Shown: positions 2,347 to 41,803, counted from the stretch's first letter. The stretch: DNA of 64,000 nt from a virus (IMGVR_UViG_3300045988_159685), one strand, 5' to 3'. The notes: generated by a model from the letters alone, not told the origin. Made by a program: numbers and translations.

Positions 2347-2838
2347 TTAATCACACCAAAGAACAACTTTGTTTTGCTTTAAACTTTCTTGTACATTAAT
2401 AACCCTCTGATTACTTGACCCTCGCCATTTTAATGTTATGTCACGTTTGTCATCTTCGTATTGACCATCAACGACTACATCGATGTACTCCATAATAGGC
2501 AAGTCTTTAATTTCTTCCCACCTATAACCTGTGTAAATCCATTGAGTTTTTGTAGGATGACAATCTTTTATTAGTGCAGATATTGCGCATACTATTTCGC
2601 GATTATCAGGAAACAAAGGATCGCCGCCTGAAAATGTTATACCTGAAATATACGACTTGTCTAACTGGTTACATATTTCAAAGATAGTATCAAAATCAAA
2701 TGGTATACCACTATCTTTATTCCATGTCTGAGGGTTTTGGCAGTTTTTACAATGATGATTACAGCCTGATACCCAAAGGACAGTTCTAAGCCCGTCACCA
2801 TTTAACATATCGTCCTTGGTTATATTATGATAGTTCAT
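2347..2838 (-). CDS. nrdG: Anaerobic ribonucleotide reductase activating protein (radical SAM)
   Basis: CNHHCKNCQNPQTW radical-SAM Cys cluster and GITFSGGDPLF. Stop/start coupled to the nrdD 3' exon. Confidence 0.9.
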   Translation of the reverse strand: MNYHNITKDDMLNGDGLRTVLWVSGCNHHCKNCQNPQTWNKDSGIPFDFDTIFEICNQLDKSYISGITFSGGDPLFPDNREIVCAISALIKDCHPTKTQWIYTGYRWEEIKDLPIMEYIDVVVDGQYEDDKRDITLKWRGSSNQRVINVQESLKQNKVVLWCD

Positions 2839-3797
2839 TACATACTCACCCTATCCTTTATCTCTGCAACCTTTGCGGCATTGTATCTACTTTTACCATG
2901 TATTCTAGTAAAGCCTAAATAGCCATTCATTCGATCAATCTGAGTTATATTTTCCGACCCACACTTCGGGCATTTATCCATTTCTAGTTGCTCATAACCG
3001 CAATCCTCACAATATGATAATGCTAAATTTATGCCCTCATAAAATCCGTAATCCATGGCACGTCTTACAAGTGTTTTTATAGCTTCCTTATTATACGATA
3101 TAGGATAACGACAATACTGTATCTTTCCACCATTGAATAAATTCCAAAAACGCTTTTCAGTATCTTGTTTCTGAACTGGAGTAATATGTTCCCATACGCC
3201 ACAATGGAATGAGTTGGAAACGTATGGTCTGTCTGATACGCCCTCTATGATACCATACTTCTTGCGGAATTGTTCAACTTGAAGCCCACACAGGCTCTCG
3301 GCAGGAGTACCGTAAATTGCGTATAGTATACGATCTTGTTCTTTAAATTCATTTGCCTTGTCATTTATGTATTGCATTACTTCATAGGCAAAATCACTAT
3401 CTTCTACAAGTGACTTACCATTATACAAATGCTGTAATTCGTTTAAAGCAGTGATACCAAAACTCATAGTCATAGCTGAAAGTATTGGTTTTATTTTATC
3501 ATTAGGGTTGAGATTGCCACCAAGAAAACCACCTTGAGTAAATCCCATTGGATTTGTCGATGCCTTTTTCTCTCCTAAAAATTCATACGTTCTTTTGTGC
3601 AGGTTTCTTATAAGTTCGAGGTAATAATCAAGAACTTCATAAAAATCTTTATTCTCCTGCCTTGCCTTTGCTAATATCATCGGCAAATGTAATGATATTG
3701 CACCAAGATTAAATCTACCCTCAAAGACAGGGTAATCATTTTCGTCTTTTGGTTTCATGCCACCTTTTACAAACCAAGGTGACAACGAAGCTCTACA
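2838..3797 (-). CDS. nrdD: Anaerobic ribonucleoside-triphosphate reductase NrdD, exon 3 (C-terminal part with Zn ribbon and glycyl-radical region)
   Basis: Begins CRASLSPWF after the splice. Contains CEDCGYE...CPKCGS and the C-terminal RMNGYLGF glycyl-radical-type motif. Confidence 0.85.
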   Translation of the reverse strand, partial: CRASLSPWFVKGGMKPKDENDYPVFEGRFNLGAISLHLPMILAKARQENKDFYEVLDYYLELIRNLHKRTYEFLGEKKASTNPMGFTQGGFLGGNLNPNDKIKPILSAMTMSFGITALNELQHLYNGKSLVEDSDFAYEVMQYINDKANEFKEQDRILYAIYGTPAESLCGLQVEQFRKKYGIIEGVSDRPYVSNSFHCGVWEHITPVQKQDTEKRFWNLFNGGKIQYCRYPISYNKEAIKTLVRRAMDYGFYEGINLALSYCEDCGYEQLEMDKCPKCGSENITQIDRMNGYLGFTRIHGKSRYNAAKVAEIKDRVSM

Positions 3798-4111
3798 CAA
3801 TGGCATAATGCCATTGGACTATATCTTTACACAACATTCTGTTACCAAATGCTGTGTACTTCGCTGTTCCACATAAGGAGTCGCACCTTATGTGTACTCT
3901 ATTCACTTCTTCACACAAGTCTTTCACTTATGCTATGTTTTCGATAGTCTCTTGACGATTATCAAAATAATTTTTGAATTTCGCACAGGATTTTTTTAGT
4001 TCCCTGTTAGCACAATTCCTAATTATCATTTCCTATAATTCCTCAACGTGAATTGTACACCCTACATTTGTAGGTTTACGAAGTTTTAGATGAGCCGTAG
4101 TGTAATTTTTA
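3798..4111 (-). mobile_element. Group I intron 2 in nrdD (ORF-less)
   Basis: Splits ..KVVSLMG | CRASLSPW... The exon ends in U (ATGGGT|) and can pair with the internal GCTCAT (U.G). The intron ends in G (CCATTG|TGT). Core elements: AATTGTGCTAACAGGGAA / AATCCTGTGCGAA (P/Q) and TCAAGAGACTATCG / AAGATATAGTCC (R/S; P7 GACTAT:ATAGTC). Confidence 0.8.
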
Positions 4112-4630
4112 ACCCATCAAACTAACGACTTTTCCATATTTCTTATACATTTCAGGAATATAACCATCCCCTGTCAAGGATAAAAAATCTGGATACATCG
4201 CTTTACTGCTACAATCAATGGCAACATCAAAAAGCCATTCTAACTTTTTACCTTTACCATGTAAATTTCCATCGTACAAAAACGTCAGCTTTGGAAATAG
4301 TACAGGTCTTTTAAAGCCCTCTTTTCCTTGTCCGCCCATTCGTGTTTTTAATGCCACCTCGCTTGCCATGGTTTCCCACTTGCTTGTGCCTATGCCAAAA
4401 CTAATGGCTATGAATGGATAATCGCCTCTTGATGACCCCACGGAATTAAACGCCATTTCCCATGATTGAAAGCCCTGTTCAAAATCCCGATAGACTTTTT
4501 TGGTTGCATATTCGTCGGCTTTATTCTTGTCACCGTTATCACATATGCTTAAATATTCGTCAACATATTTCTGATAACTTTTTTCGGCATATGGGGCTAA
4601 AAGAGTATCAACTCTAGGTATTGTAAAACC
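4112..4630 (-). CDS. nrdD: NrdD exon 2
   Basis: GFTIPRVDTLLAPY... continues exon 1 in frame once the intron is removed. Ends ..YGKVVSLMG. Confidence 0.85.
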
Positions 4631-5499
4631 CAATGCAGATGTATATTTCTATACTGGATACCGCACTGCAACATATCTTCACAACCGCTAATTGTGCCTA
4701 CTGTTTCAATTATGTGCCAATCTCACAATCTACTCTACTCGATTACTTTCATAATAAAAGCTATAATATTATGATATTCTTTCGATGTCCTCTACACTCT
4801 CTAAATTCCATTTATATTAAATTCCATTGATAACCTTGAAGTAATAATTGCTTTTTATTGTTTGTATCCTGATAGAGGTCTTTACCTTTTAATCCAATAT
4901 TTTTTCCCAATTCTTTTCTATCAAATGTTCCAACATAAATATTGTTTTTGTATAATTGATACATAAATCTTTTTGGCGATTTTTTATTTTTTAATGCTTT
5001 TCTCGTATTATTTTCTCTAGTTAATATTTGCAAATTTTCTATTGAATTATTTTGAGGATTTGCATCTATGTGATCGATCGTCAATTCCTGCGGAATATCC
5101 CCCCATCAGTGTTTCATATACCAATCTATGTACTCGGTAATATTTCCTTATATGTCGATTATTTTCTATAAAAGAAAGGCATACTTCTAAATATCCATCT
5201 TTATCCACTTTATAACAATGTTCTCTTGGTTGAAATATATTTATTCGCCCTTGTCCACCTTTAACTTTAGTAGTTATTACTTTGCCACTTTTGGTAACAT
5301 AGTATCCGTCATATTTAGTTTTATAAGCAATTTCATTTTCAAAAATTATTTCCTCCATAATTAAACCTCTCACTAATTTTCTTATGGAAATTAGATAGCA
5401 CGGTATTACCATATCAATTATGACTTAGGTTTCACCGTTAGCAACTTTCGTCACACCCTTTAGCAAGGTTAAGTAGGTTTTATTACGGCAATATTACTT
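4631..5499 (-). mobile_element. Group I intron 1 in nrdD, carrying an HNH homing-endonuclease ORF
   Basis: Splits ..SAASQQYG | GFTIPRVD... The exon end TACGGT pairs with GCCGTA 10 nt into the intron (P1 with U.G at the splice site). The last intron nt is G (GCATTG|GGT). P/Q-like TTGCTAACGGTGAAAC / AATACCGTGC and an S-like AAGATATGTTGC are present. Confidence 0.7.
4812..5358 (-). pseudogene. Intron-encoded HNH (NUMOD4/HNH_3-like) homing endonuclease, split by a +1 frameshift
   Basis: The N-terminal part (YYVTKSGKV..VHRLVYETL) and the HNH core (IDHIDANPQNNSIENLQILTRENN) are in different frames. Removing one G from the G6 run (C6 at 5099-5104 on the plus strand) gives ..YETLMGDIPQELTIDHID.. Confidence 0.75.
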
Positions 5500-6150
5500 A
5501 CCGTATTGTTGACTAGCTGCCGACATTGTTACATCACTTATAACATCGAAGGCAACGTCAAGTGTCTTAGGCTCGTTATAATGAATATTACCCATTTCAA
5601 AGCCACCAGACAAAACATTTGCCATATCGAAAATACAACAGTTTATGCCGTCAAGTCTGTCTTTCTTATCATGAATATAGATATAACCGTCTCTAGCCGC
5701 CTGTCTTTCTTCAACATTCAAGAAGAATTTATCATACAGGTTCTTGTTTAACTCACCATAAATCAAACTGCGCTGTGTGCTAGTCATAGTAGAATCAGTG
5801 TTGGCATTTGAAACGTCGCCAATATAACGAATGCCCTGAGACTTGGTATATACATCGTCCATCATATGAACAAAGTCTTTTTTGTAATTTCTATACTGCC
5901 TATAACATTCACCTGATTTCGGGTAAAGGTCAAGCAAGGTGCGCTCGACTATTGCATGTATCGCCTCAACCGAAATACAATCATTTTCTAAATCTTCTTC
6001 CATTATGTAATCCATAACAGCAGAGCAAATTTTTTCATAATCTTTATCTGAAAGATTTTCCAATGCCCTGTTAGCTGATTTGCTACAGGCATTGATTATT
6101 TTTTGATAATCAAAATCTTCTAATGTTCCGTCCTTTTTTATTACTTTCAT
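5500..6150 (-). CDS. nrdD: NrdD exon 1 (ATP-cone and N-terminal domain)
   Basis: MKVIKKDGTLEDFDYQKI ATP-cone start. The in-frame stop lies 2 codons after the inferred 5' splice site. Confidence 0.85.
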
Positions 6151-6172: not shown

Positions 6173-6808
6173 CTACAAATATATTTCTATACCAATTTCA
6201 GTTTCCATAATAGTATTAATTGCCTTGTCAATATCGTTCCAATTCTTACAACGATATTTTTGATACAACGTATGAATATTACTTTCATATGACTCAAAGC
6301 CATGTCTATTCCATGGATAATCAAATAAAATTTTATGGTAATAGCCATCAACTAAATTATCTACACAATCATCAATTAGAATATCAATGCCCCTACCGAG
6401 CATTTGCTTGTTCTTTATGACTATTAGGCTATCATACATATTTAAAAATGGAAGTTGTTCTTGTAACCAAGCCGCCTTACTAGAAATATTCTGTGGGGCT
6501 GTAGCTGTTACTATGTAAATTTCACAACCTAAATCATGGTATTTCTTCAATGTAGCAACACAATTTTCAAGCACTTTTATATTTTTCCATACTCTCTTAT
6601 CCGTGAAATAGTCATAGAACTTATCCTGAGAAACATTTTTAAAGAACTGCCTCATATTATAGGTAGTTATATCGGCAACAGACAAATTGTCATTATAGTC
6701 CTTATTATAAACATCAATAATACTCTCTGCTAGATTATTAATAACATTGTCACAATCCACACCGATTCGCCAAGGTCTAGGTCTTTTCAGATTTGCTTTC
6801 AGTTCCAT
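6173..6808 (-). CDS. 5'(3')-deoxyribonucleotidase-like HAD hydrolase (NT5C family)
   Basis: HAD motif I IGVDCDNVINN. Size and layout fit NT5C. Start chosen at MELKANL, 8 nt after AAAGGGGGA. Confidence 0.6.
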   Translation of the reverse strand: MELKANLKRPRPWRIGVDCDNVINNLAESIIDVYNKDYNDNLSVADITTYNMRQFFKNVSQDKFYDYFTDKRVWKNIKVLENCVATLKKYHDLGCEIYIVTATAPQNISSKAAWLQEQLPFLNMYDSLIVIKNKQMLGRGIDILIDDCVDNLVDGYYHKILFDYPWNRHGFESYESNIHTLYQKYRCKNWNDIDKAINTIMETEIGIEIYL

Positions 6809-6926
6809 TGGCATTTCCCCCTTTATCATTCTCGTCTAATTCATCAAGCATTTCGACCACTGTCCTATAGGCTATCAAAAAGCCAAACGCAAGTCCGACC
6901 AAAATACCAATAATAAAATTAGCCAT
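6777..6926 (-). CDS. Small membrane protein (49 aa, below ORF-track cutoff)
   Basis: MANFIIGILVGLAFGFLIAYRTVVEML.. has one clear TM helix. AAGGAG lies 10 nt upstream of the ATG. Confidence 0.4.
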   Translation of the reverse strand: MANFIIGILVGLAFGFLIAYRTVVEMLDELDENDKGGNANGTESKSEKT

Positions 6927-7314
6927 TCTTGTTATGCTCCTTTATGTATTTTTCATATTCTTTCTTAATCTGGCTAAGTGTTAAATACTTATACGGAATT
7001 CCTCTTTCGCTACAATACGCAATTTCGGTCAGGCAACCTTTAGAATACATATAGCTATCGGAACATATCACCATGCGATCCGCCAGTTCTTCGAGAAGAA
7101 ACAAAGTCATATTTAGCCCTTGCTCATAGCTCGTACAATCATACAAACTCCCGAACATAGCTATAGGGTTTAAATATAAATTTTCAGGATGCATAATCGT
7201 CAACAATCTTTGACACTCATTAACCTCGTCAAGATTATCTTTTTTACCGCCGTATGGATGAGAAAGATACACAACACCATTATAATTGCTCTTGTTAATT
7301 ATTTTCATTGTCAT
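6919..7314 (-). CDS. Nucleoside 2-deoxyribosyltransferase-like (DUF4406-like) protein
   Basis: VYLSHPYGG near the N-terminus and SKGCLTEIAYCSERGIPY near the C-terminus resemble the NDT-fold pattern. Sits in a nucleotide-metabolism context. Confidence 0.35.
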   Translation of the reverse strand: MTMKIINKSNYNGVVYLSHPYGGKKDNLDEVNECQRLLTIMHPENLYLNPIAMFGSLYDCTSYEQGLNMTLFLLEELADRMVICSDSYMYSKGCLTEIAYCSERGIPYKYLTLSQIKKEYEKYIKEHNKNG

Positions 7315-7882
7315 TATCCTGCCTTTTAGTTATCGCCTGAATATAATTTTTCAGTTCGTCATATGCTGTCTCAATATTATCATTGTTAGTAATTACATAA
7401 TCCACTACAAGATTGCAATTTTCAAATTCAATTTCATCTTGTTTAATACGCTCCATTGCACGATTTGTTGCCACGAGGCTATTCTGGTACATTTTAAAAT
7501 AGCGATCAAACAGGCGGTCATACCGATTAATAGGCAGACAATCTATGTATACCGAGTAAATTTTTCTGTCGCCTTTATACTTTTCTTTAAGCTCATTTAA
7601 ACCTGTCTGATCAACAACATAGAGGTCATGAGCTTCGTCGTCAATTTGCTGAGACGTAACACCATAATGATTGTTCAGATAATAATTATATGCCACAATG
7701 TCATTGAGGTTCTGAAACTCTTCCTCGGTTACAAAAGTATGTCCTGCCTCGCCCTCATATCTTGGTGGGCGCGTTGTGTAAGAGGCAATCTGTTTCATGT
7801 TTAACTCAATTTCAAGTTTTTGCACAAGCGTTGATTTGCCGCTTGCCGAAGCTCCGAGAATACAAAATAACGGTTTACTCAT
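7295..7882 (-). CDS. Guanylate kinase-like nucleoside monophosphate kinase
   Basis: P-loop GASASGKSTL followed by SYTTRPPRYEGEAGHTFVTEEEF (guanylate kinase signature). Confidence 0.75.
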   Translation of the reverse strand: MSKPLFCILGASASGKSTLVQKLEIELNMKQIASYTTRPPRYEGEAGHTFVTEEEFQNLNDIVAYNYYLNNHYGVTSQQIDDEAHDLYVVDQTGLNELKEKYKGDRKIYSVYIDCLPINRYDRLFDRYFKMYQNSLVATNRAMERIKQDEIEFENCNLVVDYVITNNDNIETAYDELKNYIQAITKRQDNDNENN

Positions 7883-13250: not shown

Positions 13251-14096
13251 TTAATAATTCGTAATTAAGACCTCTATATCTTTTGTCTTGTCTTTTTTCT
13301 GGTAATTACAATTTCCGTAACTGGTGCTTAGATAGTGGATTTTATAACCGTGGTCTTCTGCCCAATTCTTTAACGTCAGGTTTGTTTTCAGATTATTTGA
13401 TAACGCCCATTTCACGTTTGATGTCACAAGCATATTCCGCAAATCTTCTTCGTCGGTATTAGTCCAACCGCCATTTTCATTATAGGTTGCCGTAGAATTA
13501 AAGTACGGAGGATCGCAATACAGAAAATCATTTTCGCCAAACGCTACGCCGATGAACTCGCGAAAATCAGCATTGGTAAACTTGCAGTCTTTATTGCTGA
13601 TTGCTTCTGAAAATTCTATGAACTTTTCTCTTAATGTAGGGTTAAAGCTACTTCTGTCTTTCCCAAATGGCATATTAAATTCGCCTTTTGAATTAAAACG
13701 AATTTGGTTGTTAAAGGCGTAACAAATTAGCACATATAAAATAACGGACTGTTTAGATTCCGACTCGTTAAAATAGTTGCGGAGTCTCAAATACCCGTCC
13801 CTATTAATCTTTGATAAGTCATATTGCTTGATTATCTTATCTATTTCGCCAAGACTTTTATCGGTTCCATTTCTATGTATGTATTCAAGTATTTGCACTA
13901 CAGGCAAATTCAAATCATTATAAATAACCTCTTTCGCAGGAACATTAATTCCAACATTAAACCCACCGCCAAACAAGTCAATAAAAGTGTCAATATTTTT
14001 CGGAAACAATGGTAATATCTGCGGTAGAAGCTTGTATTTGCCACCCACATAATTGAGTGGCGATTTTATATATTTTTGTTTTATTAGTATCATCAC
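13251..14096 (-). CDS. DNA N6-adenine methyltransferase (D12/Dam class)
   Basis: PLNYVGGKYKLLPQI, FIDLFGGGFNVG (SAM binding), DPPY catalytic motif. Confidence 0.85.
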   Translation of the reverse strand: MMILIKQKYIKSPLNYVGGKYKLLPQILPLFPKNIDTFIDLFGGGFNVGINVPAKEVIYNDLNLPVVQILEYIHRNGTDKSLGEIDKIIKQYDLSKINRDGYLRLRNYFNESESKQSVILYVLICYAFNNQIRFNSKGEFNMPFGKDRSSFNPTLREKFIEFSEAISNKDCKFTNADFREFIGVAFGENDFLYCDPPYFNSTATYNENGGWTNTDEEDLRNMLVTSNVKWALSNNLKTNLTLKNWAEDHGYKIHYLSTSYGNCNYQKKDKTKDIEVLITNY

Positions 14097-16524: not shown

Positions 16525-17238
<714 letters not shown>

Positions 17239-26280: not shown

Positions 26281-26517
26281 TTATACACATTGTTCTAACC
26301 AATAAATTTTATTGAATTTCCAAAGTAATTTACATTTTCGTGCATTTACTTTCTTACAATGTTTTGTTTTAGATTGAAAATTCAAAGCTAATTGTTCTGG
26401 ATATAAAGCTGTAACATATCCTGTATGTGTTTCTCCATTTTTATATGTATATGAAACTAAATCTCTATGTCTAATTCCTAATACATTATCAGTTTTTGCT
26501 TTGGATTTTCTTCTCAT
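26281..26517 (-). CDS. Hypothetical small basic protein
   Basis: [35 protein letters not shown].. Overlaps the end of the LAGLIDADG ORF. Function not recognised. Confidence 0.35.
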
Positions 26518-27316
26518 TGGCTTTATTATCCATTTTGAATCGTTCTTTTTTTCTATGCAAAAACAAATCATTGTCTGTCATATCTTTATATATAAAATCG
26601 CCAAACTTGGACACTTCATCTTTCCTAGTAACATATAAAGAATGAGGAATGTCACTTTTACTATTTTTATGATTTGTTTGTACTATTGAATGAACTCTAA
26701 TATTATTTTGTTCCAAAATTTCTTTTAAAGATATTAAAAAATGCTTAGTTCCCATAATGTGAACACAATACCCATTTTTATCTACTGAACCATCTCCATC
26801 AAAATATCCTCTAATAAAATCATTCAAATATTGTTTAGAAATCCATAATGGAAATTCTAATGTCAAACTTTTTCTTTCCGTAAATCCTAAATTGATTAAA
26901 CTGTCATATATTTTTTGATTGCAGATATTTATGGAAACAGAAGTTTGATTTTCATATAATTTATGAGTTGATTTCATATCTAATAGAATGTTTTTCAATA
27001 AATATTTATCATCGTTTTTTATATGAATATTAAAACACTTATTTCCACCACTTGAACATATACAACCATCAGCACACCAAAATCCTAAAACATAAAACAT
27101 ATTTCTACTTTTTTCATTGAAATAATTTTCATTAATATTGTATTTTTTATTTGCAATACCATTACTAGCATATCTATCAATCTTTTTTATCCCCATTTCT
27201 TTTGCCTTACAATTAATAGCATCTCTGTTTCGATGAAATATTTCAACTAAATCATTAGTTGGATAATTAGGATATAACTCTTGTAATAATATTACTTCTT
27301 CCTTTGACCATTTCAT
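26489..27316 (-). CDS. LAGLIDADG homing endonuclease (double-motif) with N-terminal Myb/SANT-like HTH
   Basis: Two LAGLIDADG motifs, [11 protein letters not shown] and [12 protein letters not shown]-terminal [15 protein letters not shown]. Confidence 0.8.
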
Positions 27317-29489: not shown

Positions 29490-29906
29490 CTAATTTGAAA
29501 TTTTCCTAAAAAGATCTGTGTTATGTACGCCAGCCTGAAACGCCTTTATCACTATGGGCGTTGCGTACACCATAGCCGTAGCTATTTTGTCAAGTTGCTC
29601 GTCATTAAATGTACCGAGCTTTTTTAATATTTGCCACTTGTTAATAACCCATTTACTCTCAGCCTCTACGGTAGAATCACGTTTTAAGCCCTCGACCTCG
29701 GAGGCTTTGAAAGTAACATGAGTTGGAAGCTCTGAATTATTGCGCTTAGTTGTCAAAGGTAAAACCTCAACCATAGGACTTACTGCATTACCCACATTAT
29801 TTGATACTATAACTGCGGGTCTCTTACCACCTTGCTGATGCCCAATATTATTTGATAAATCAACAAGCACTAAATCCCCAGTGTAGTATGCTTCATATTT
29901 TGACAA
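29490..29906 (-). CDS. mazF: MazF/PemK-family endoribonuclease toxin-like protein
   Basis: GDLVLVDLSNNIGHQQGGKRPAVIVSNN...VLPLTTK. TTG start at 29906, 7 nt after AAAGGAG. About 40-aa C-terminal extension. Confidence 0.72.
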   Translation of the reverse strand: MSKYEAYYTGDLVLVDLSNNIGHQQGGKRPAVIVSNNVGNAVSPMVEVLPLTTKRNNSELPTHVTFKASEVEGLKRDSTVEAESKWVINKWQILKKLGTFNDEQLDKIATAMVYATPIVIKAFQAGVHNTDLFRKISN

Positions 29907-29960
29907 TACAATTCTCCTTTCTATTAATATTATGTAATGTGAATAATGCAAAAAAATTGA

Positions 29961-31477: not shown

Positions 31478-31640
31478 CATCCTCCCCCGACCTATAGAGG
31501 TCGGAGCTTCCTCCTGCAAGATTTGCAGGCAGTCGGTTCTCGTTCGAGCAGTCCATTGACTACAGCATAAGCGAGCTATCCCCGTGTGTCCCACGGTTCT
31601 ATTGGATTTGGCTATGCGAAAGCTATTCGCATGCCTTCAT
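31478..31640 (-). ncRNA. Putative TnpB omega (re)RNA scaffold at the element's right end
   Basis: The GC-rich, hairpin-dense segment overlapping and following the tnpB 3' end (CCGTGGGACACACGG, CTGCAAATCTTGCAG, CCGACCTCTATAGGTCGG on the minus strand) sits where omega RNAs are encoded. Confidence 0.55.
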
Positions 31641-32751
31641 TTCTAATGTTAATAGCGGCATTTACGTCTCTGTCGTGATGAGTACCACATTCAGGGCAAT
31701 CCCATTCACGGATAGACAGATCTTTTGTAGCATTGTTTTTGTAACCGCATACGCTGCAGGTCTGAGAGCTGGCAAAGAATTTATCTACTCGTATAAGTCT
31801 TTTACCCTGTTCTTCAAGCTTGTACTTTAAGAACGCAGTAAACATTCCCCAGCCATTATCAGATACAGATTTACCAAAGTGCAAAGATCTTGACATAGCT
31901 TTCATATTAAGACCTTCTATACATATACAATCATAGGCATTGGATATCTGTCTTGATAGTTTATGCAAGAAGTCTTTCCTTTGGCCAGCTACCTTTTCGT
32001 GCAGCTTGGCTACCTTTATACGCTGCTTGTTTCTATTACTTGAGCCTTTTTGCATATGAGATAGCTTACGTTGTTCTTTAGCAAGTTTCTTTTCTGCACT
32101 GCGATAATATCTTGGATAAGCAGGCTCATTACCGTTACTATCTTTGTACAGCTCGTGCATAGAATAATCAAGACCAAGAAAACTAAGCAATTCTTTGCTT
32201 TGTACTTGTTTTTCGTACTCGAAAAGAATGCTTACATAATACTTTCCTGCAGGTGTTTGTTTTACTGTTACATATTTAAGTATATAGCTGTCAGGTACCT
32301 TTCTATGCTGCTTTATCTTTACTTTACCCATCTTAGGAAGCTTTATATATCTATTAGATAGTTCTATATTTCCATTTACACAGTTTGTTGTGTAGCTGCG
32401 GTCGTTTTCTTTCTTAGACTTATACCTTGGATAACCGTTGCCCTGCAAAGTAAAGAAACTCTGAAAAGCCTCATCAAGGTGACGAAGAGCCTGCTGAAGA
32501 GCAATACTGTCCACTTCTTTCAGAAAAGAATATTCCTCGGCCTTTTTAATATCTGTAAGCTGTTGACTGCACTTATTATATGATACGCTTTCTTTGTTAT
32601 CAGTATATGCTGTTCTTCTTATATACAGCCAATGATTATATACCCACCTTACACAGCCAAATGTCTTTGTAAGAAGGGCTTTCTGCTCTGAAGATGGATA
32701 GATCCTAAATACATAGGCTTTATGACCAAGATCATCGTTCTTTTTAGGCAT
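31612..32751 (-). CDS. tnpB: TnpB (OrfB) RNA-guided nuclease, IS200/IS605 family
   Basis: AYVFRIYPSSEQKALLTKTFGCVRWVYN.., RuvC-like segments, SQTCSVCGYKN..WDCPECGTHHDRDVNAAINI zinc finger/RuvC III. ATG at 32751 follows AGGAGGTGG. Confidence 0.9.
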   Translation of the reverse strand: MPKKNDDLGHKAYVFRIYPSSEQKALLTKTFGCVRWVYNHWLYIRRTAYTDNKESVSYNKCSQQLTDIKKAEEYSFLKEVDSIALQQALRHLDEAFQSFFTLQGNGYPRYKSKKENDRSYTTNCVNGNIELSNRYIKLPKMGKVKIKQHRKVPDSYILKYVTVKQTPAGKYYVSILFEYEKQVQSKELLSFLGLDYSMHELYKDSNGNEPAYPRYYRSAEKKLAKEQRKLSHMQKGSSNRNKQRIKVAKLHEKVAGQRKDFLHKLSRQISNAYDCICIEGLNMKAMSRSLHFGKSVSDNGWGMFTAFLKYKLEEQGKRLIRVDKFFASSQTCSVCGYKNNATKDLSIREWDCPECGTHHDRDVNAAINIRNEGMRIAFA

Positions 32752-32872
32752 TCTTTGCCACCTCCTTATTATGATTATATCATTTTGAACTCTTTTTAGC
32801 AAACTTTAGAGACGCAATCCATCCCTCACCTATAGAGGTGAGGGTATTCTTGCTTCGGTTTGATAAAAGTTA

Positions 32873-34147: not shown

Positions 34148-34270
34148 TCAAACAAATACCTCCATAATTTTGCCAAAATCCGGAATGTTATCCACTGTTG
34201 CTTTTTCTTCTTGAGTCCTACCAAAAGGCGTAACTTCGATATAGCCTTCACAATATGTCCATTCACTCAT
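34148..34270 (-). CDS. Hypothetical 40-aa protein (below cutoff)
   Basis: MSEWTYCEGYIEVTPFGRTQEEK... Its stop abuts the next gene's start. Confidence 0.35.
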   Translation of the reverse strand: MSEWTYCEGYIEVTPFGRTQEEKATVDNIPDFGKIMEVFV

Positions 34271-34345: not shown

Positions 34346-35146
34346 TTATCTTGCCCTATTAATTCTCTGTCGGGCTACTGTAATAATATAATCAAAAGAC
34401 GGCATTGGTTTGAGTTTAAACTCATTTTTCTTATGAAGATTATCTATCTTCGACTTGATTTCTGCCTTGGGCAGAACCCCATATCGTATATATTTATCCA
34501 AAGTATCGTAACTAAATCCAAGGTTATCTTCATCCGTCTTCCCACACAAACCATCAGAAGGAGTTTTCTCAATAAATTTCTCAGGTAAACCAAGAAAGCG
34601 ACCTATTGATTTTACTTCTTGCACTGTAAACTTCGCAAGCGGTGCCATGTCCCCTGCTCCATCGCCATACCTTGTGGCATAACCAATATAATCCTCAGAA
34701 TAATTGCAAGTATTAATAACACGCCCACCGACTGTCTGCGATACAGCATAAAGTGTAGCCATACGCAAACGTGCTGGCAGATTTATTGTTGTTTGTTCAC
34801 TAAGGGTAGTCTCAAGGGCGTCACTGATTTTTGCTATAGCAGTATCATAAACTGATTCAATATTTATTGTTACATTATTAATACCGAGAAACTCGCAGAG
34901 TTCATTAGCATAGTTGATATCTGCCTGTTCTCCGTTTGGCATAAGCACGCCGAACACTCTTTCTTTACCAAGTGCTTTAACGCAGAGTGCTGCGACAACA
35001 GATGAGTCTTTTCCGCCAGATATTCCAATAACGGCTTTGCAACCATTTCCATTGTTCTCAAACCAATCTCTAATCCATTCAACACACATCTCTGCTGCCA
35101 CGTAAGAATTAAAATCCAGATTATAATTATCGTCATTATAACTCAT
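34346..35146 (-). CDS. nadE: NAD+ synthetase (NadE, ATP-pyrophosphatase family)
   Basis: PP-loop GISGGKDSSVVAALC; size and layout fit ammonia-dependent NadE. Confidence 0.85.
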   Translation of the reverse strand: MSYNDDNYNLDFNSYVAAEMCVEWIRDWFENNGNGCKAVIGISGGKDSSVVAALCVKALGKERVFGVLMPNGEQADINYANELCEFLGINNVTINIESVYDTAIAKISDALETTLSEQTTINLPARLRMATLYAVSQTVGGRVINTCNYSEDYIGYATRYGDGAGDMAPLAKFTVQEVKSIGRFLGLPEKFIEKTPSDGLCGKTDEDNLGFSYDTLDKYIRYGVLPKAEIKSKIDNLHKKNEFKLKPMPSFDYIITVARQRINRAR

Positions 35147-35164
35147 AAAAACACCTCGCTTAGA

Positions 35165-36643
35165 TTAGAAATTATTATTGTGGAGTCTGTTGCGGATATT
35201 AGCAAGTGAGTCATCAATAAGCAATTCGCTATTTCTGAATATTGCCTTTAACTCTTGTTTACTATTACAGGAAACTTCTTTCCAAGTATATTCGTCCTTA
35301 TAACAGAGCTCGCCGTTATCGTCTTTATAAACAAGACAACAACCCTTTTGTGATTTCTTAAATCCACCCTCTTTTGGATTTTTGAATATAGGATATGGCT
35401 TATGATCGATTTCACAGTATGTTGCCTTAATACAAGAACTAAAGGTATCTCTTGTAAATGGTTTAAGTATTCCATCTTCTTCTACGCACTGAAATGAAAA
35501 TGAGCCAACGCCAAGTGCAACATTGCTAGCCGCAAAGCCGTTATCCTTTAAAATTTCATATATCCTTTCACAACGCTGGATAGTAATTGAGTCACCATAA
35601 ATAGCCTTTACATGAGGGTCAAGAACTTTGTATCCCTTACTATTAATTGTGCCACCAAATTCATCCCAAAGTTTAAACACTGTTTTAGTTACAACTTCTA
35701 TGCAATCACCTGAATCGCCACGCATAAGCATGCAACCATTGTGCGCCATAATCTCTGGTTTTATTTGTGGCAAAACGTTATCAATGACATTCCAATAATC
35801 ATATGAATCAAGGACAGCAGAAAAACTTGTATCAGGATAAATCTCGGTCAATAATCTTTTAAGCAACGTAACTTCGTCACCATCAACCGCATAATTTGAA
35901 CACATAACTGCATGTTCGGTAGAGGGCGAACCAAATGCTACAGGCTCTTTGGTACAATCGCAATTATAAAGCTTTTCAAGATATGGTATGACAGGGACTG
36001 TTGCTGTATTTACAAAACTCAGACACCAACCAGCCGCCGCTTTAATAGCAGAATCCGTACATTCTTCACCTCTAAAGTCAAAAGAACCTAGAGCTTTGTT
36101 TCGTGACACACTATCATCACAGGTTTCATCGTAGAACTTATTTACGATATCACGATAAGTTGCACCCACCGTTGCGGCAAGCATTGGATGCCAAGCCTCG
36201 GCTGATATAAGCGATTCAAGAGCCTGCGGTAGCCATGCAAAATCGTCATGCGTATTAGTTATGCAAAACATCGGAACGTGCATTGGAACCTTTGTTCCTT
36301 CTGGTAATGCCCATATCTCAATTGGGAGATAGCCAAGGGCATGCAGGTCTTTTATTTTCTGCAAGCCATATACGCCCTTACCAAGTGAAGCATCCATAAT
36401 ACGCTCATATTCCGAAATGACTTCGTCTATAGGGCGTTCAAAAAATCTTTCATTAAAGTAATCTATCAAATAGGTTTTTACAAAGCCCTGAAGTCCGAAC
36501 ATCACGACTTTGTTCCACATCCTTACACGACTCATTCGTGGCGTAAAATATGAAACGGATTTTGTTATCTTAGTCGGCAACATCTCAGCATGAACCGCTT
36601 TATAAAAATCAATAAGTAGCATTGGGTTTATATTATATAACAT
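35165..36643 (-). CDS. Nicotinamide/nicotinate phosphoribosyltransferase-family protein (NAMPT/NadV-like; possible Namat)
   Basis: N-terminal NPMLLIDFYKAVHAEM. 492 aa, typical of the NAMPT/NAPRT fold family. Adjacent to a Prs-like gene. Confidence 0.8.
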   Translation of the reverse strand: MLYNINPMLLIDFYKAVHAEMLPTKITKSVSYFTPRMSRVRMWNKVVMFGLQGFVKTYLIDYFNERFFERPIDEVISEYERIMDASLGKGVYGLQKIKDLHALGYLPIEIWALPEGTKVPMHVPMFCITNTHDDFAWLPQALESLISAEAWHPMLAATVGATYRDIVNKFYDETCDDSVSRNKALGSFDFRGEECTDSAIKAAAGWCLSFVNTATVPVIPYLEKLYNCDCTKEPVAFGSPSTEHAVMCSNYAVDGDEVTLLKRLLTEIYPDTSFSAVLDSYDYWNVIDNVLPQIKPEIMAHNGCMLMRGDSGDCIEVVTKTVFKLWDEFGGTINSKGYKVLDPHVKAIYGDSITIQRCERIYEILKDNGFAASNVALGVGSFSFQCVEEDGILKPFTRDTFSSCIKATYCEIDHKPYPIFKNPKEGGFKKSQKGCCLVYKDDNGELCYKDEYTWKEVSCNSKQELKAIFRNSELLIDDSLANIRNRLHNNNF

Positions 36644-36660
36644 AACTTGTCACCTCCAAA

Positions 36661-37512
36661 TTAAAACATATCGAAAATCTCAATTTTGTCTGCGTTTACT
36701 TCAAGTCCATCGGCACCAATCTTCTTGCGGTAAATACTATTGGTAGAGAAAACCTTTTTGATAAGCCCGCTCTTAATCATGTCGCCGTCGTGTACCGAAT
36801 TTTCAAGATGTGAAACGTATAAATAAATGTCGCCAACACCATACTCTTTTAGAGCTTTTGCACTATAATAGAAAGTTCCGCCCCTAGAACAAATATCATC
36901 AACAATTAATACGTTTCTACCTTTTAATGTGTCTGTATTACCCATGATGCTTAATCCATTAATGGTTCCAGTTTTCCAATCCCTATTTTTCATACCGAAT
37001 ACATAAGGCACTTCAAGAATACTAGATATGAATGAATAACGTTTCATTGCGCCTTCGTCTGGGAAAAATAAAATAAGATCTTTCCTAGAAATCTTTTCGT
37101 CAATAATATTATCCCTCAAAATGCCAGCCGGTGAAGAATCTCTGATATTGTTTATTAGAGCCGCTCCAACGTTTGAATGAATGTCAAGTGTAAATACTTT
37201 TCTAAACTCCATATTATTGATTAGATTTGCAAATGTTTTGAGCGTAAACATTTCAAACGCTTTTTGTGTACGATCCATGCGAGCATTAGGAACATATGGC
37301 ATATTCAGATTAATGTTACAAAAGCCCTTGCTCTTTAACCAATCGACACAGCAAGCTAACTGAAATATCTCCGAATCATTGTCGTAAAGCCAAGTTATGT
37401 CTATAGGTGCTGAAACCCCATATCCAATGAGTTCCGCAATGCTATAGGTCAGTTTACACGTTCCATCAGGAAATTTAATAATATTAATTGGTTTAGAATC
37501 AATAGAAATCAT
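36661..37512 (-). CDS. Ribose-phosphate pyrophosphokinase-like protein (Prs-like; possible Adps)
   Basis: FTLDIHSNVGA (DxHS-type) and the PRPP-loop NVLIVDDICSRGGTF. Confidence 0.75.
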   Translation of the reverse strand: MISIDSKPINIIKFPDGTCKLTYSIAELIGYGVSAPIDITWLYDNDSEIFQLACCVDWLKSKGFCNINLNMPYVPNARMDRTQKAFEMFTLKTFANLINNMEFRKVFTLDIHSNVGAALINNIRDSSPAGILRDNIIDEKISRKDLILFFPDEGAMKRYSFISSILEVPYVFGMKNRDWKTGTINGLSIMGNTDTLKGRNVLIVDDICSRGGTFYYSAKALKEYGVGDIYLYVSHLENSVHDGDMIKSGLIKKVFSTNSIYRKKIGADGLEVNADKIEIFDMF

Positions 37513-37524
37513 AGAATCCTCCTA

Positions 37525-38049
37525 TTATATAATGTTAATTTGACAACTTTTTGCTACCGTTAAAGCCGCCTGCTTCGCTTCGGGTGTTGTGCCTGCTGTA
37601 GCATTTTCGATTATATTAATCTTCATTTCGGGAAACCGTGTTTTTAGAATTAAGGCATTTGTAATCACGCAGATATCAGTGCAAAGTCCAACCAAATCGA
37701 CTTCGTCGTAGTTATCCTCAACTAACTTAGTGGCAATATTAAATGTACCAAATGTCGGCTTATTAATAACATCACATGGTATATTGCTTTCAATAGAAGC
37801 GACAGCTATATCATCATGTATTTTCCAACCATTGGTGCCTCTTATACAATGTTCGATAGGTAAATTTTTGCCCTCCTGTGTATCAAGATAATCTTTGCTA
37901 TGGGTGTCTCGTGTAAAAAATATCGCCGCATAGTCGGAACTTTGTATAAGCTTTGCAACATTTGGAACAATAGCTTGGGCTTCCCTAGTTCCCAAACTGC
38001 CATTAATAAAATCATTCTGCATATCAATAACTATTAATGCTTTTTTCAT
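37525..38049 (-). CDS. pncA: Nicotinamidase / isochorismatase-family hydrolase
   Basis: ALIVIDMQNDF, TRDTH, LVGLCTDICV (catalytic Cys). Confidence 0.78.
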   Translation of the reverse strand: MKKALIVIDMQNDFINGSLGTREAQAIVPNVAKLIQSSDYAAIFFTRDTHSKDYLDTQEGKNLPIEHCIRGTNGWKIHDDIAVASIESNIPCDVINKPTFGTFNIATKLVEDNYDEVDLVGLCTDICVITNALILKTRFPEMKINIIENATAGTTPEAKQAALTVAKSCQINII

Positions 38050-38186
38050 ATGTAAACCTCTTTTCTCATTCACTTCATATAATATAAAATAAGTCCATCT
38101 AGGTGCTTACAAGGGTTTTCTTCTTGCCTTTAGCGGTACATTCGATCTTATATAGTTTTATCATTTTTTTATTTCTCCTAAAAAAA

Positions 38187-40716: not shown

Positions 40717-41082
40717 TTAAACCGCCCTGCTCGCCTTGATTTTATCATTGGCAATTTTAAATATTTTGAGGTAATATTCCAACCTTGCTTTTTTAATTTC
40801 ATTATCGCCACACCATCGCATCTGCTTTTCAAGCTCAATTATTAATTGAGGTATCGTGTAATTATCTTTTATAGTATTACAGTCGTGGCAGCATACAACT
40901 AAATTACTGACCTCGTCTTTACCACCTTTTGATACAGGTATGATATGGTCAAGCGTTTTATCTGATTTGATATACTTCCCACAATAAAAGCAGAAATCAG
41001 AATCTACCTCTTTGCGTACTTGTTCTGTGTAGTTTCGCATATAATAAAAAAAAAGAGGGCGACTAACGCCGCCCTCGTACAT
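40717..41082 (-). CDS. HNH endonuclease-domain protein
   Basis: CFYCGKYIKSDKTLDHIIPVSKGGKDEVSNLVVCCHDCNTIKDN. Confidence 0.8.
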   Translation of the reverse strand: MYEGGVSRPLFFYYMRNYTEQVRKEVDSDFCFYCGKYIKSDKTLDHIIPVSKGGKDEVSNLVVCCHDCNTIKDNYTIPQLIIELEKQMRWCGDNEIKKARLEYYLKIFKIANDKIKASRAV

Positions 41083-41086
41083 GTTG

Positions 41087-41803
41087 TTATCTAATGCCTC
41101 TGCTGTCGATTTCATGATTGATGAATTTCTGCAAATCATCATATGTCATAGCGGCAATAGTATCATCGAGACCATACTCATCGTCACATGTTGACACTGG
41201 GTAAATCTTGTTTGCCTCGCAGATCATCTGATCAACATTGCAATAATCGTCGCCATACTTTGTAGGATTGTCAACCGCAGTTCTATAAACCTCTACAATA
41301 TCATAGTCGCTATTTGACACATGCTCCAGGGTGTCATTGTCAAACTTGGAAAGCCATGTAAAGCTGTTATTAGCTGTATGATATCTAACAATATCGCCGA
41401 ACTCTGCGCCCTTAAATACTGTAGACCTCTTGCCGTTTCTATGAACAAGCATATCACCTGTTTTAAGGGAGTCGATTGTTATATCGTCGCCGTTAGCCTC
41501 GGCTGTAGCTCTGTCGTAAACAACTGTGCCGTACTCCAGCATCTTAAGTGGATTAAAAACAAGGTCGCCAATCTTATTGCTTGCAACGCCTATAGCACGA
41601 TAAACCTTAACAATTGTCAGTCCATCTGCTCTCTTGTTTGTCATATCTGAATTGTAGTTTACGCCGAGTCTTGAGAATGAATTAAACTCAGTATGGAAGC
41701 GAAGCACATCTTCTCTAGCTGTGCCCTTCATAACTGTTGCCATCTTACCGTTTGCACATATAACGAGGTCGCCTGTCTTAAGATTAGAAATTGTAAATGT
41801 CAT
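41087..41803 (-). CDS. Protein with an internal tandem duplication (two ~95-aa repeats)
   Basis: FTISNLKTGDLVICANGKMATVMKGTAREDVLRFHTEFNSF.. versus ITIDSLKTGDMLVHRNGKRSTVFKGAEFGDIVRYHTANNSF.. ATG at 41803 follows AAAGGAG. Confidence 0.6.
   Translation of the reverse strand: MTFTISNLKTGDLVICANGKMATVMKGTAREDVLRFHTEFNSFSRLGVNYNSDMTNKRADGLTIVKVYRAIGVASNKIGDLVFNPLKMLEYGTVVYDRATAEANGDDITIDSLKTGDMLVHRNGKRSTVFKGAEFGDIVRYHTANNSFTWLSKFDNDTLEHVSNSDYDIVEVYRTAVDNPTKYGDDYCNVDQMICEANKIYPVSTCDDEYGLDDTIAAMTYDDLQKFINHEIDSRGIR

Follow-up and report, generated by a model that had tools for sequence, protein, structure and literature searches.

We analysed a 64,000-nt stretch of viral DNA, IMGVR_UViG_3300045988_159685 (the window in what follows), in which four consecutive open reading frames (ORFs) on the minus strand were verified at positions 34346-38049. 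In 5' to 3' order they encode a nicotinamidase (PncA), an Adps-type Prs homologue, a transferase of the Namat/NAMPT fold and a synthetase of nicotinamide adenine dinucleotide (NAD+), NadE (Table 1). These genes had been proposed from their motifs in an earlier reading of the sequence alone (the sequence-only reading), and it turned out that the ORFs, the motifs, the domains and the ribosome-binding site at 38049 all agreed with it. The genes are separated by 12 nt (PncA-Adps), 17 nt (Adps-transferase) and 18 nt (transferase-NadE), which is the spacing expected of an operon. The pncA gene has an AAGAGG ribosome-binding site 7 nt 5' of the ATG at 38049, indicating that 38049 is the right start and not the GTG at 38073. 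Adps and Namat together form NARP1, a phage NAD+ reconstitution pathway (Osterman et al. 2024, bioRxiv 10.1101/2024.02.11.579819), and structures have been published both for Namat (9w5x/9w5w, PMC12774641) and for Adps (PMC13586617). Of the known Adps genes 97% adjoin Namat, and adjacency is used as the NARP1 criterion; in the window, the Adps-clade gene lies 17 nt from the Namat-family gene on the same strand.

Table 1. Positions of the operon genes, of the transferase segments discussed in the text and of accessory genes in related modules
Feature	Position	Strand	Remark
pncA-like nicotinamidase	37525..38049	-	174 aa, operon gene 1
Adps-type Prs homologue	36661..37512	-	283 aa, second gene
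Namat/NAMPT-fold transferase	35165..36643	-	492 aa, third gene
nadE, single-domain NH3-dependent NAD+ synthetase	34346..35146	-	266 aa, final gene of the operon
Ala214 codon of the transferase	36002..36004	-	equals SpβL1 Namat Asp215 and human NAMPT Asp219; NTAT for GTDT
Ser241 codon of the transferase	35921..35923	-	equals SpβL1 Namat Ala242, a nicotinamide-pocket residue
Selectivity-clamp helix region of the transferase, GSFSFQCVEEDGILKPFTRD	35447..35506	-	GSFSFQ start, TRD end; a 9-residue insertion replaces the Tyr396 position
Accessory genes embedded in related four-gene modules	L001:7714-8190; L091:11487-12002; L100:11904-12314; L040:9488-10240		

To place the transferase, we compared it with profiles, PDB sequences and structures. 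It matches PF04095, PF18127 and phrog_448 (E=7e-156), and among PDB sequences it scores 377 bits against the SpβL1 Namat (9w5x/9w5w) versus about 145 bits against human NAMPT. The AF2 model of the protein (predicted local distance difference test, pLDDT, 94.8) was aligned by Foldseek to the same Namat entries with a template modelling (TM) score of 0.92-0.94 and a root-mean-square deviation of 1.7 Å, while H. ducreyi NadV and human NAMPT were ranked under Namat. No PncB-type NAPRT appeared within the Foldseek top 50, and this identity was rejected on fold and sequence. NCBIfam NF006629, which is named nicotinate phosphoribosyltransferase, also matches (419.6 bits against a cutoff of 405), but this label is generic for NadV-type enzymes. 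The catalytic core of Namat is kept, including D13, Y15, F189, R192, the catalytic His, R306, D308 and G360-D361. Judged by sequence and fold, the protein belongs to the NAMPT/Namat lineage, yet it is not a canonical Namat.

The departure from Namat lies mainly in the pyridine pocket, where the nicotinamide recognition by Asp215 and Ala242 is not kept. In SpβL1 Namat, Asp215 hydrogen-bonds the nicotinamide amide, and the D215A mutation reduces the NAD+ output 8.1-fold (PMC12774641). The window transferase carries Ala214 and Ser241 instead, and Asp215 is absent in all 164 distinct members of its clade that were examined. According to the accounts given in two reviews (PMC4919578, PMC7096376), the equivalent Asp219 of human NAMPT defines substrate specificity, D219A abolishes nicotinamide activity, and D219S (Khan et al. 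2006) is reported to switch the preference toward nicotinic acid. The D219S mutant, as these reviews describe it, thus concerns the same Asp in the same pocket, but there a single residue was exchanged by engineering in an enzyme that uses PRPP (phosphoribosyl pyrophosphate), while the change in the window is natural, clade-wide and accompanied by further pocket changes.

To see how far these changes extend, we took the 150 representatives of 50%-identity clusters nearest to the window transferase. Position 215 is Asp in 96 of them (95 with Asp and Ala242), and the 55 non-Asp representatives have Ala (37), Ser (17) or Val (1). The two pocket positions go together, as Ser242 is found in 52 of the 55 non-Asp representatives and Ala242 in 95 of the 96 Asp representatives; His187Ser/Gly and other pocket changes accompany Ala242Ser across the Ala/Ser clade. 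Seventeen of the 150 natural representatives carry Ser215, the same change as NAMPT D219S. In a neighbour-joining tree, which is a midpoint-rooted distance tree limited to these 150 nearest representatives, the states at position 215 split cleanly into 96 versus 46 tips with no mixing. An unbiased column scan ranked 215, 187 and 242 as the top clade-discriminating positions, followed by 304, 213, 240, 239 and 185, and all of these other than 304 fall within three segments that build the nicotinamide pocket. By contrast, both clades keep R40, F392, T398, R399, D400, D361, R306 and D308, and conservation extends to the ribose-phosphate residues and most of the adenine clamp. On these residue patterns, a nicotinate-type transferase is the best-supported assignment, and a plain NARP1 with extra genes seems unlikely.

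Among the residues of the adenine clamp, only Tyr396 differs between the clades. The Arg40 equivalent of the clamp loop (SCL) is kept in the window (PRMSRV), and 50 of 55 clade representatives have Arg or Lys there. The selectivity-clamp helix (SCH) of the window reads GSFSFQC[VEEDGILKP]FTRD, so that Phe at position 3 and the terminal TRD are kept, while position 7 is Cys and is followed by an insertion of nine residues; it departs from the published SCH motif definition (PMC12774641). The AF2 model predicts the insertion as an ordered β-hairpin (residues 386-395). Some members of the Ala/Ser clade keep an SCH of 11 residues. For example, phage Phass-1 (L054, OQ749652.1 96860-101298), a gut phage with genetic code 15, carries the same colinear module with an Ala/Ser-type transferase whose helix reads GAYTYQYVTRD, and this classical length suggests that the pocket had switched before the hairpin was inserted. 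As a separate observation, three Asp-type homologues (P0167, P0209 and P0214) contain intein-like insertions of about 280 aa (C...SHN) exactly within the motif GS[FY]-/-TYQ[MY][NV]TRD, and many further transferase homologues are 550-1100 aa long with split matches.

The Prs homologue belongs with Adps. It matches phrog_619 (E=5.6e-69) and has the motifs DIHS and VDDICSRGGT, but its TIGR01251 score (112.3) is slightly under the cutoff of 113 and it is far under all Prs equivalog cutoffs of NCBIfam. It shares 36% identity with the Adps of SpβL1, a validated enzyme, and 21% with the Prs of E. coli. The protein is without the N-terminal extension of Prs, its C-terminus is shorter and of the Adps type (Prs α11-α12 are lost), and it has RMDR and PHS-DV in place of RQDRR and DLHA-EQIQGFF of Prs. 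We used the functional residues and the architecture defined from the ICP1 Adps structures (PMC13586617), with ICP1 numbering in which K185 is catalytic. All residues common to the ICP1 and SpβL1 Adps are kept, namely F18, R87, H121, D161, K185, I194, D212, D213 and the lid F221/aromatic-223, and none of them varies among 76 distinct clade members; several are also conserved in Prs, from which Adps is told apart by the hairpin motif, the lid and the truncations. Canonical Prs was rejected by its Adps-like sequence, motifs and truncations and by the missed Prs thresholds, and on the same sequence features the protein groups with validated Adps and not with cellular Prs. The sequence-only reading had seen a NARP1-type pair of Prs and NAMPT homologues and had proposed to compare them with Adps and Prs and with NAMPT, NAPRT and Namat, respectively; both comparisons bore the pair out, as the first protein falls on the Adps side in identity and in all shared residues, and Namat is nearest to the second by score and by TM.

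The two outer genes of the operon encode the predicted nicotinamidase and NAD+ synthetase. The PncA protein matches PF00857 (E=2.9e-25), and its best PDB matches are the nicotinamidases/pyrazinamidases 1ilw, 3pl1 and 3o90. The Asp-Lys-Cys triad is present (D of IDMQNDF, K of INKPTF and C of CTDICV), and the Asp/His/His metal ligands are kept (RDTH...EHC). Its score against the NCBIfam PncA equivalog is 27.3 with a cutoff of 174, indicating a divergent member of the family. NadE has the PP-loop GISGGKDSS, matches PF02540 (E=1.5e-55) and scores 191 bits against TIGR00552 (cutoff 63.65). It consists of a single synthetase domain, in which no glutaminase domain was found, and its best PDB match is the NH3-dependent NadE of P. 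horikoshii (2e18, 142.6 bits). In the archaeal subfamily, the M. jannaschii NadE is specific for nicotinic acid adenine dinucleotide (NaAD, or deamido-NAD) and is without activity as a synthetase of nicotinamide mononucleotide (NMN). The residues which we take to be Y27, Q133 and R236 in Francisella NadE correspond to Asn, Gln and Lys in the window NadE; this pattern is ambiguous and we did not rely on it.

The pocket type of the transferase goes together with the genes that surround it. We retrieved 80 loci from IMG/VR with a mixed alignment, and it turned out that Adps, NadE and PncA accompany the Ala-type transferase in 29 of 29 loci with full flanks and the Ser-type in 24 of 24, whereas the Asp-type loci have Adps in 22 of 25 and NadE or PncA within 10 kb in none of 25. 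In bacterial genomes (80 loci, all of the Ala-type), the four genes occur together in 61 of the 64 loci with adequate flanks. After de-duplication to 190 distinct transferases, the complete four-gene module is present in 147 of 164 Ala/Ser-type proteins, the others being mostly on cut contigs, and NadE or PncA was found within 10 kb of none of the 26 Asp-type proteins. Of the complete loci, 92 of 96 viral ones and all 69 from bacterial genomes keep the order PncA-Adps-transferase-NadE on one strand, which indicates that the arrangement is not due to chance. The median pairwise identity of the partner proteins is 47-60% despite this fixed order.

Related modules also contain accessory genes (Table 1), all of which are absent from the window operon. 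About 30 loci encode a Macro-like protein within the module (PF01661, 27.7 bits in L001), 12 related loci have NADAR proteins (PF08719, 96.5 bits), and 22 have a 251-aa protein with a DxDxT-like motif that matches no Pfam family. For classical NARP1 the literature describes an add-on, Adpp, a Macro-domain phosphatase of ADP-ribose-1''-phosphate, which answers a specific defence, aRES (NARP1-AP, bioRxiv 10.64898/2026.01.28.702374); RyDEP, an enzyme that produces ADP-ribose, also occurs within NARP1 operons. Such parallels link the clade to an input of ADP-ribose and to counter-defence.

Taken together, the operon is probably a deamidated variant of NARP1 that runs via NaAD. We infer the substrates, the products and the role in counter-defence from the gene identities, the clade placement, the residue changes and the co-occurrence with PncA and NadE, and the scheme would be as follows. 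When NAD+ is cleaved to ADP-ribose and nicotinamide by a NADase of the host, such as Thoeris, DSR or SIR2-HerA, PncA is predicted to hydrolyse nicotinamide to nicotinate and NH3, while the Adps homologue would convert ADP-ribose and ATP into ADP-ribose pyrophosphate (ADPR-PP) and AMP. The Namat-derived transferase would then join nicotinate and ADPR-PP into NaAD, with release of pyrophosphate, and the NH3-dependent NadE would amidate NaAD to NAD+ with ATP and NH3. The NH3 of the first step would balance the NH3 spent in the last, and the set would be self-sufficient, with no need for an adenylyltransferase. The logic of the pathway favours this route: a Namat that used nicotinamide would lose its substrate to PncA, NadE would be left without a substrate unless a deamido dinucleotide is made, and neither an NMN adenylyltransferase nor NadD was found in the scanned window ORFs. 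A deamidated NARP1 is also the sole reading that needs all four genes, requires no host enzyme and is not sabotaged by PncA.

The sequence-only reading had likewise noticed that no NMN adenylyltransferase (NMNAT) or Nudix gene was visible and that flanking by PncA and NadE was not known for NARP1 or NARP2, and it had left room for a hybrid of the NARP1 and Preiss-Handler routes. We found no NMNAT or Nudix Pfam domain (including CTP_transf_like) in the scanned window ORFs of at least 150 aa, with shorter ORFs scanned in part; for nine large ORFs the scan used PHROGs alone, and 7 of these are annotated with other functions. NadD was also not found among the scanned window ORFs. We found a PncA-linked, NadE-linked or nicotinate-type NARP mentioned in none of the searched papers on NARP1, NARP2, NARP3, NARP1-AP, Namat, Adps, RyDEP and aRES, with a description in a subscription journal being possible, and the association itself is strongly conserved, as described above. 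As for the hybrid option, the changes of Asp215 to Ala and of Ala242 to Ser make the synthesis of NaAD from nicotinate and ADPR-PP, followed by NadE, the best-supported reading.

Several points weigh against synthesis through NaAD. In the model, the Tyr396 position is lost to the β-hairpin, and the preference for ADPR-PP could be weakened; Namat moreover keeps PRPP activity in vitro (PMC12774641). The NAMPT D219S mutant, as known via the reviews, was assayed with PRPP and not with ADPR-PP. The Ala/Ser clade is, by its sequences, a single lineage, in which the correlation with PncA and NadE stands for one or a few events maintained by selection across deep divergence. The second PDB match of NadE is the Francisella NadE (3fiu, 121 bits), an NMN synthetase that acts on nicotinic acid mononucleotide (NaMN). 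Finally, the chemistry of the clade is predicted throughout, and the selective advantage of two extra steps is unexplained. The loss of Tyr396 and the in vitro use of PRPP would suit a Preiss-Handler route, in which the Prs-like protein makes PRPP, the transferase acts as a NAPRT on a NAMPT scaffold to give NaMN, host NadD and phage NadE complete the synthesis and PncA supplies nicotinate. The pocket changes would favour nicotinate with either ribosyl donor, and the name of NF006629, generic as it is for NadV-type enzymes, points the same way. But the Prs-like protein resembles Adps in sequence, motifs and truncations and misses the curated Prs thresholds, the clamp keeps R40, F392 and T398-R399-D400, and the transferase is coupled to an Adps homologue as tightly as classical Namat, whereas the PRPP-using Nampt clade of NARP2 is found in phages without any Adps homologue. 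The Macro/Adpp-like and NADAR genes within related modules also indicate ADP-ribose as the input, and a host enzyme would be required midway through the pathway of a phage operon. We therefore regard this route as possible but doubtful.

An ordinary NARP1, which makes NAD+ from nicotinamide and ADPR-PP, with PncA and NadE as independent auxiliaries that boost host salvage, would account for the adjacent Adps and Namat-family pair, and classical operons are known to gain extra genes such as Adpp and RyDEP. It seems quite improbable, because the nicotinamide-binding Asp is missing clade-wide and mutations equivalent to its loss leave both Namat and NAMPT crippled with nicotinamide as the substrate, PncA would draw on the nicotinamide that the pathway itself needs, and PncA and NadE accompany none of the 26 Asp-type Namats but nearly always the Ala/Ser-type. 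If NadE were an NMN synthetase like its Francisella match, nicotinate would pass through NaMN to NMN, and an adenylyltransferase would then make NAD+. The top match of NadE is, however, of the archaeal type (2e18), whose M. jannaschii member is specific for NaAD, NMNAT was not found in the module or the scanned window ORFs, and the Adps homologue would be left unexplained, so we give this reading very little credence. A last alternative keeps the chemistry identical and changes the purpose to a general metabolic boost, which would raise NAD+ in gut anaerobes during infection, for instance from dietary niacin. Salvage of the KVP40 type raises NAD+ even without a defence system, and the gut Clostridia that serve as hosts live where niacin is plentiful; yet ADP-ribose, the substrate of Adps, accumulates mainly upon NAD+ cleavage, the classical Adps and Namat pair is a proven counter-defence, and the Adpp-like Macro genes in related modules answer aRES. 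This purpose therefore appears improbable.

Compared with known systems, the window operon is closest in its core to NARP1, with an Adps-clade Prs homologue directly upstream of a Namat-lineage transferase in a phage, both catalytic cores and the clamp residues R40, F392 and T398-R399-D400 conserved, and ADP-ribose as the expected input. Unlike NARP1, it has Ala for Asp215, Ser for Ala242 and the 9-residue hairpin in the clamp helix, and a nicotinamidase and an NAD synthetase are obligatory among its four genes; its transferase is predicted to make NaAD and not NAD+. Like NARP1-AP, the NARP1 core is extended by enzymes of the same operon, and a Macro-like gene is shared with about 30 related modules; but the window operon has no Macro gene, and the PncA/NadE extension would alter the chemistry of the base, while Adpp merely repairs the ADP-ribose input. 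NARP2 (Nampt with Nmnat/Nudix, Vibrio phage KVP40) shares a NAMPT-family enzyme and the rebuilding of NAD+ in infected cells. It uses PRPP and nicotinamide via NMN, needs an NMN adenylyltransferase and works without Adps, whereas the window has an Adps homologue, a transferase on the Namat side and no NMNAT among the scanned ORFs. The name NARP3 was considered for the module and rejected, as it denotes a PnuC-like transporter with a NadR-like bifunctional enzyme, and no PnuC-like or NadR-like gene was found among the four operon genes or the other scanned window ORFs. Bacterial Preiss-Handler salvage (PncA-PncB-NadD-NadE) has the same first and last steps and deamidated intermediates, but by fold and sequence the transferase is not a PncB-type NAPRT, NadD was not found among the scanned window ORFs, and a Namat-type transferase with Adps would give NaAD from nicotinate and ADPR-PP in one step.

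The module is common among prophages of Clostridia from the human and animal gut and nearly absent from isolate phages. Among 50,697 GenBank phage records, 2,020 have a Namat/Nampt homologue, 45 a NadE homologue and 7 this PncA, and all of the last 7 come from the human gut. A megablast of the 4.2-kb region against GenBank phages gave no match, and protein-level searches were needed. The near-absence from databases of isolate phages would explain why the module was not reported in surveys of isolate genomes. Bacterial hosts include Lachnospiraceae, Ruminococcus/Oscillospiraceae, Acutalibacteraceae and Filifactor, a list that covers close relatives of 69-79% identity in a single-protein scan of genome contigs. 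Near-identical copies of the transferase (98-100% identity in the homologue search) occur in long Ruminococcus contigs and in hundreds of gut metagenome contigs, and the operon is carried by a prophage of gut Ruminococcus. Separately, Synechococcus phage S-SSM7 has a NadE-like gene (L055, 204978-205739) amid sugar epimerases, glycosyltransferases and UDP-glucose dehydrogenase. It may not serve NAD synthesis, and as part of a sugar-modification cluster it was rejected as an instance of the same system.

The window itself is a temperate phage of gut Clostridia, with an integrase (260-1465), a DNA polymerase, a DnaB helicase, a primase and genes of nucleotide metabolism. The operon is flanked on the minus strand by short ORFs with plausible ribosome-binding sites, one of about 22 aa upstream (38099-38164) and one of about 40 aa downstream (34151-34269). 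A promoter and terminator scan gave matches no more frequent than in shuffled sequence and hence no usable signal. A TnpB/Cas12f-like OrfB_IS605 protein of 396 aa (31612-32802, minus strand) lies 1.5 kb downstream of the operon, and a MazF/PemK-type toxin gene is located at 29490-29951 on the minus strand (PF02452, E=2e-21). Two D12-class adenine methyltransferases (13251-14096 and 16525-17238), a LAGLIDADG endonuclease (26489-27316) and an HNH endonuclease (40717-41142) show that genes of the homing type and for methylation are plentiful in this phage. Its anaerobic ribonucleotide reductase, NrdD, is spread over three minus-strand ORFs (5494-6150 with the ATP-cone, 4109-4633 and 2838-3806), and the gaps of about 860 and 300 bp between the pieces suggest introns or homing elements; adjoining them are NrdG (2347-2838), a dUTPase (1714-2196), an NT5C nucleotidase (6173-6829) and a kinase-like gene (7295-7882). 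At about 56000 the coding strand and the GC/AT skew flip, with minus-strand genes before this point and plus-strand genes after it.

In conclusion, the chances are slightly better than even that the operon represents a fourth phage NAD+ reconstitution pathway, which would return the products of NADases to NAD+ via deamidated intermediates and without an adenylyltransferase, by a central reaction (nicotinate and ADPR-PP to NaAD) that is not known to have been described before. If the predicted chemistry is true, the direct synthesis of NaAD from nicotinate and ADPR-PP would be a new enzymatic reaction, and the clade would offer a natural case of two or three pocket substitutions re-targeting a NAMPT-fold enzyme from the amide to the acid. 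For annotation, the two enzyme types may be separated by a simple rule, GTD...A-TEH versus [NK]T[AS]...S-TEH. It also raises the question of why some phages spend extra ATP on a detour via deamido-NAD, for which a fast host nicotinamidase, an irreversible pull on the pathway or dietary niacin are possible reasons.

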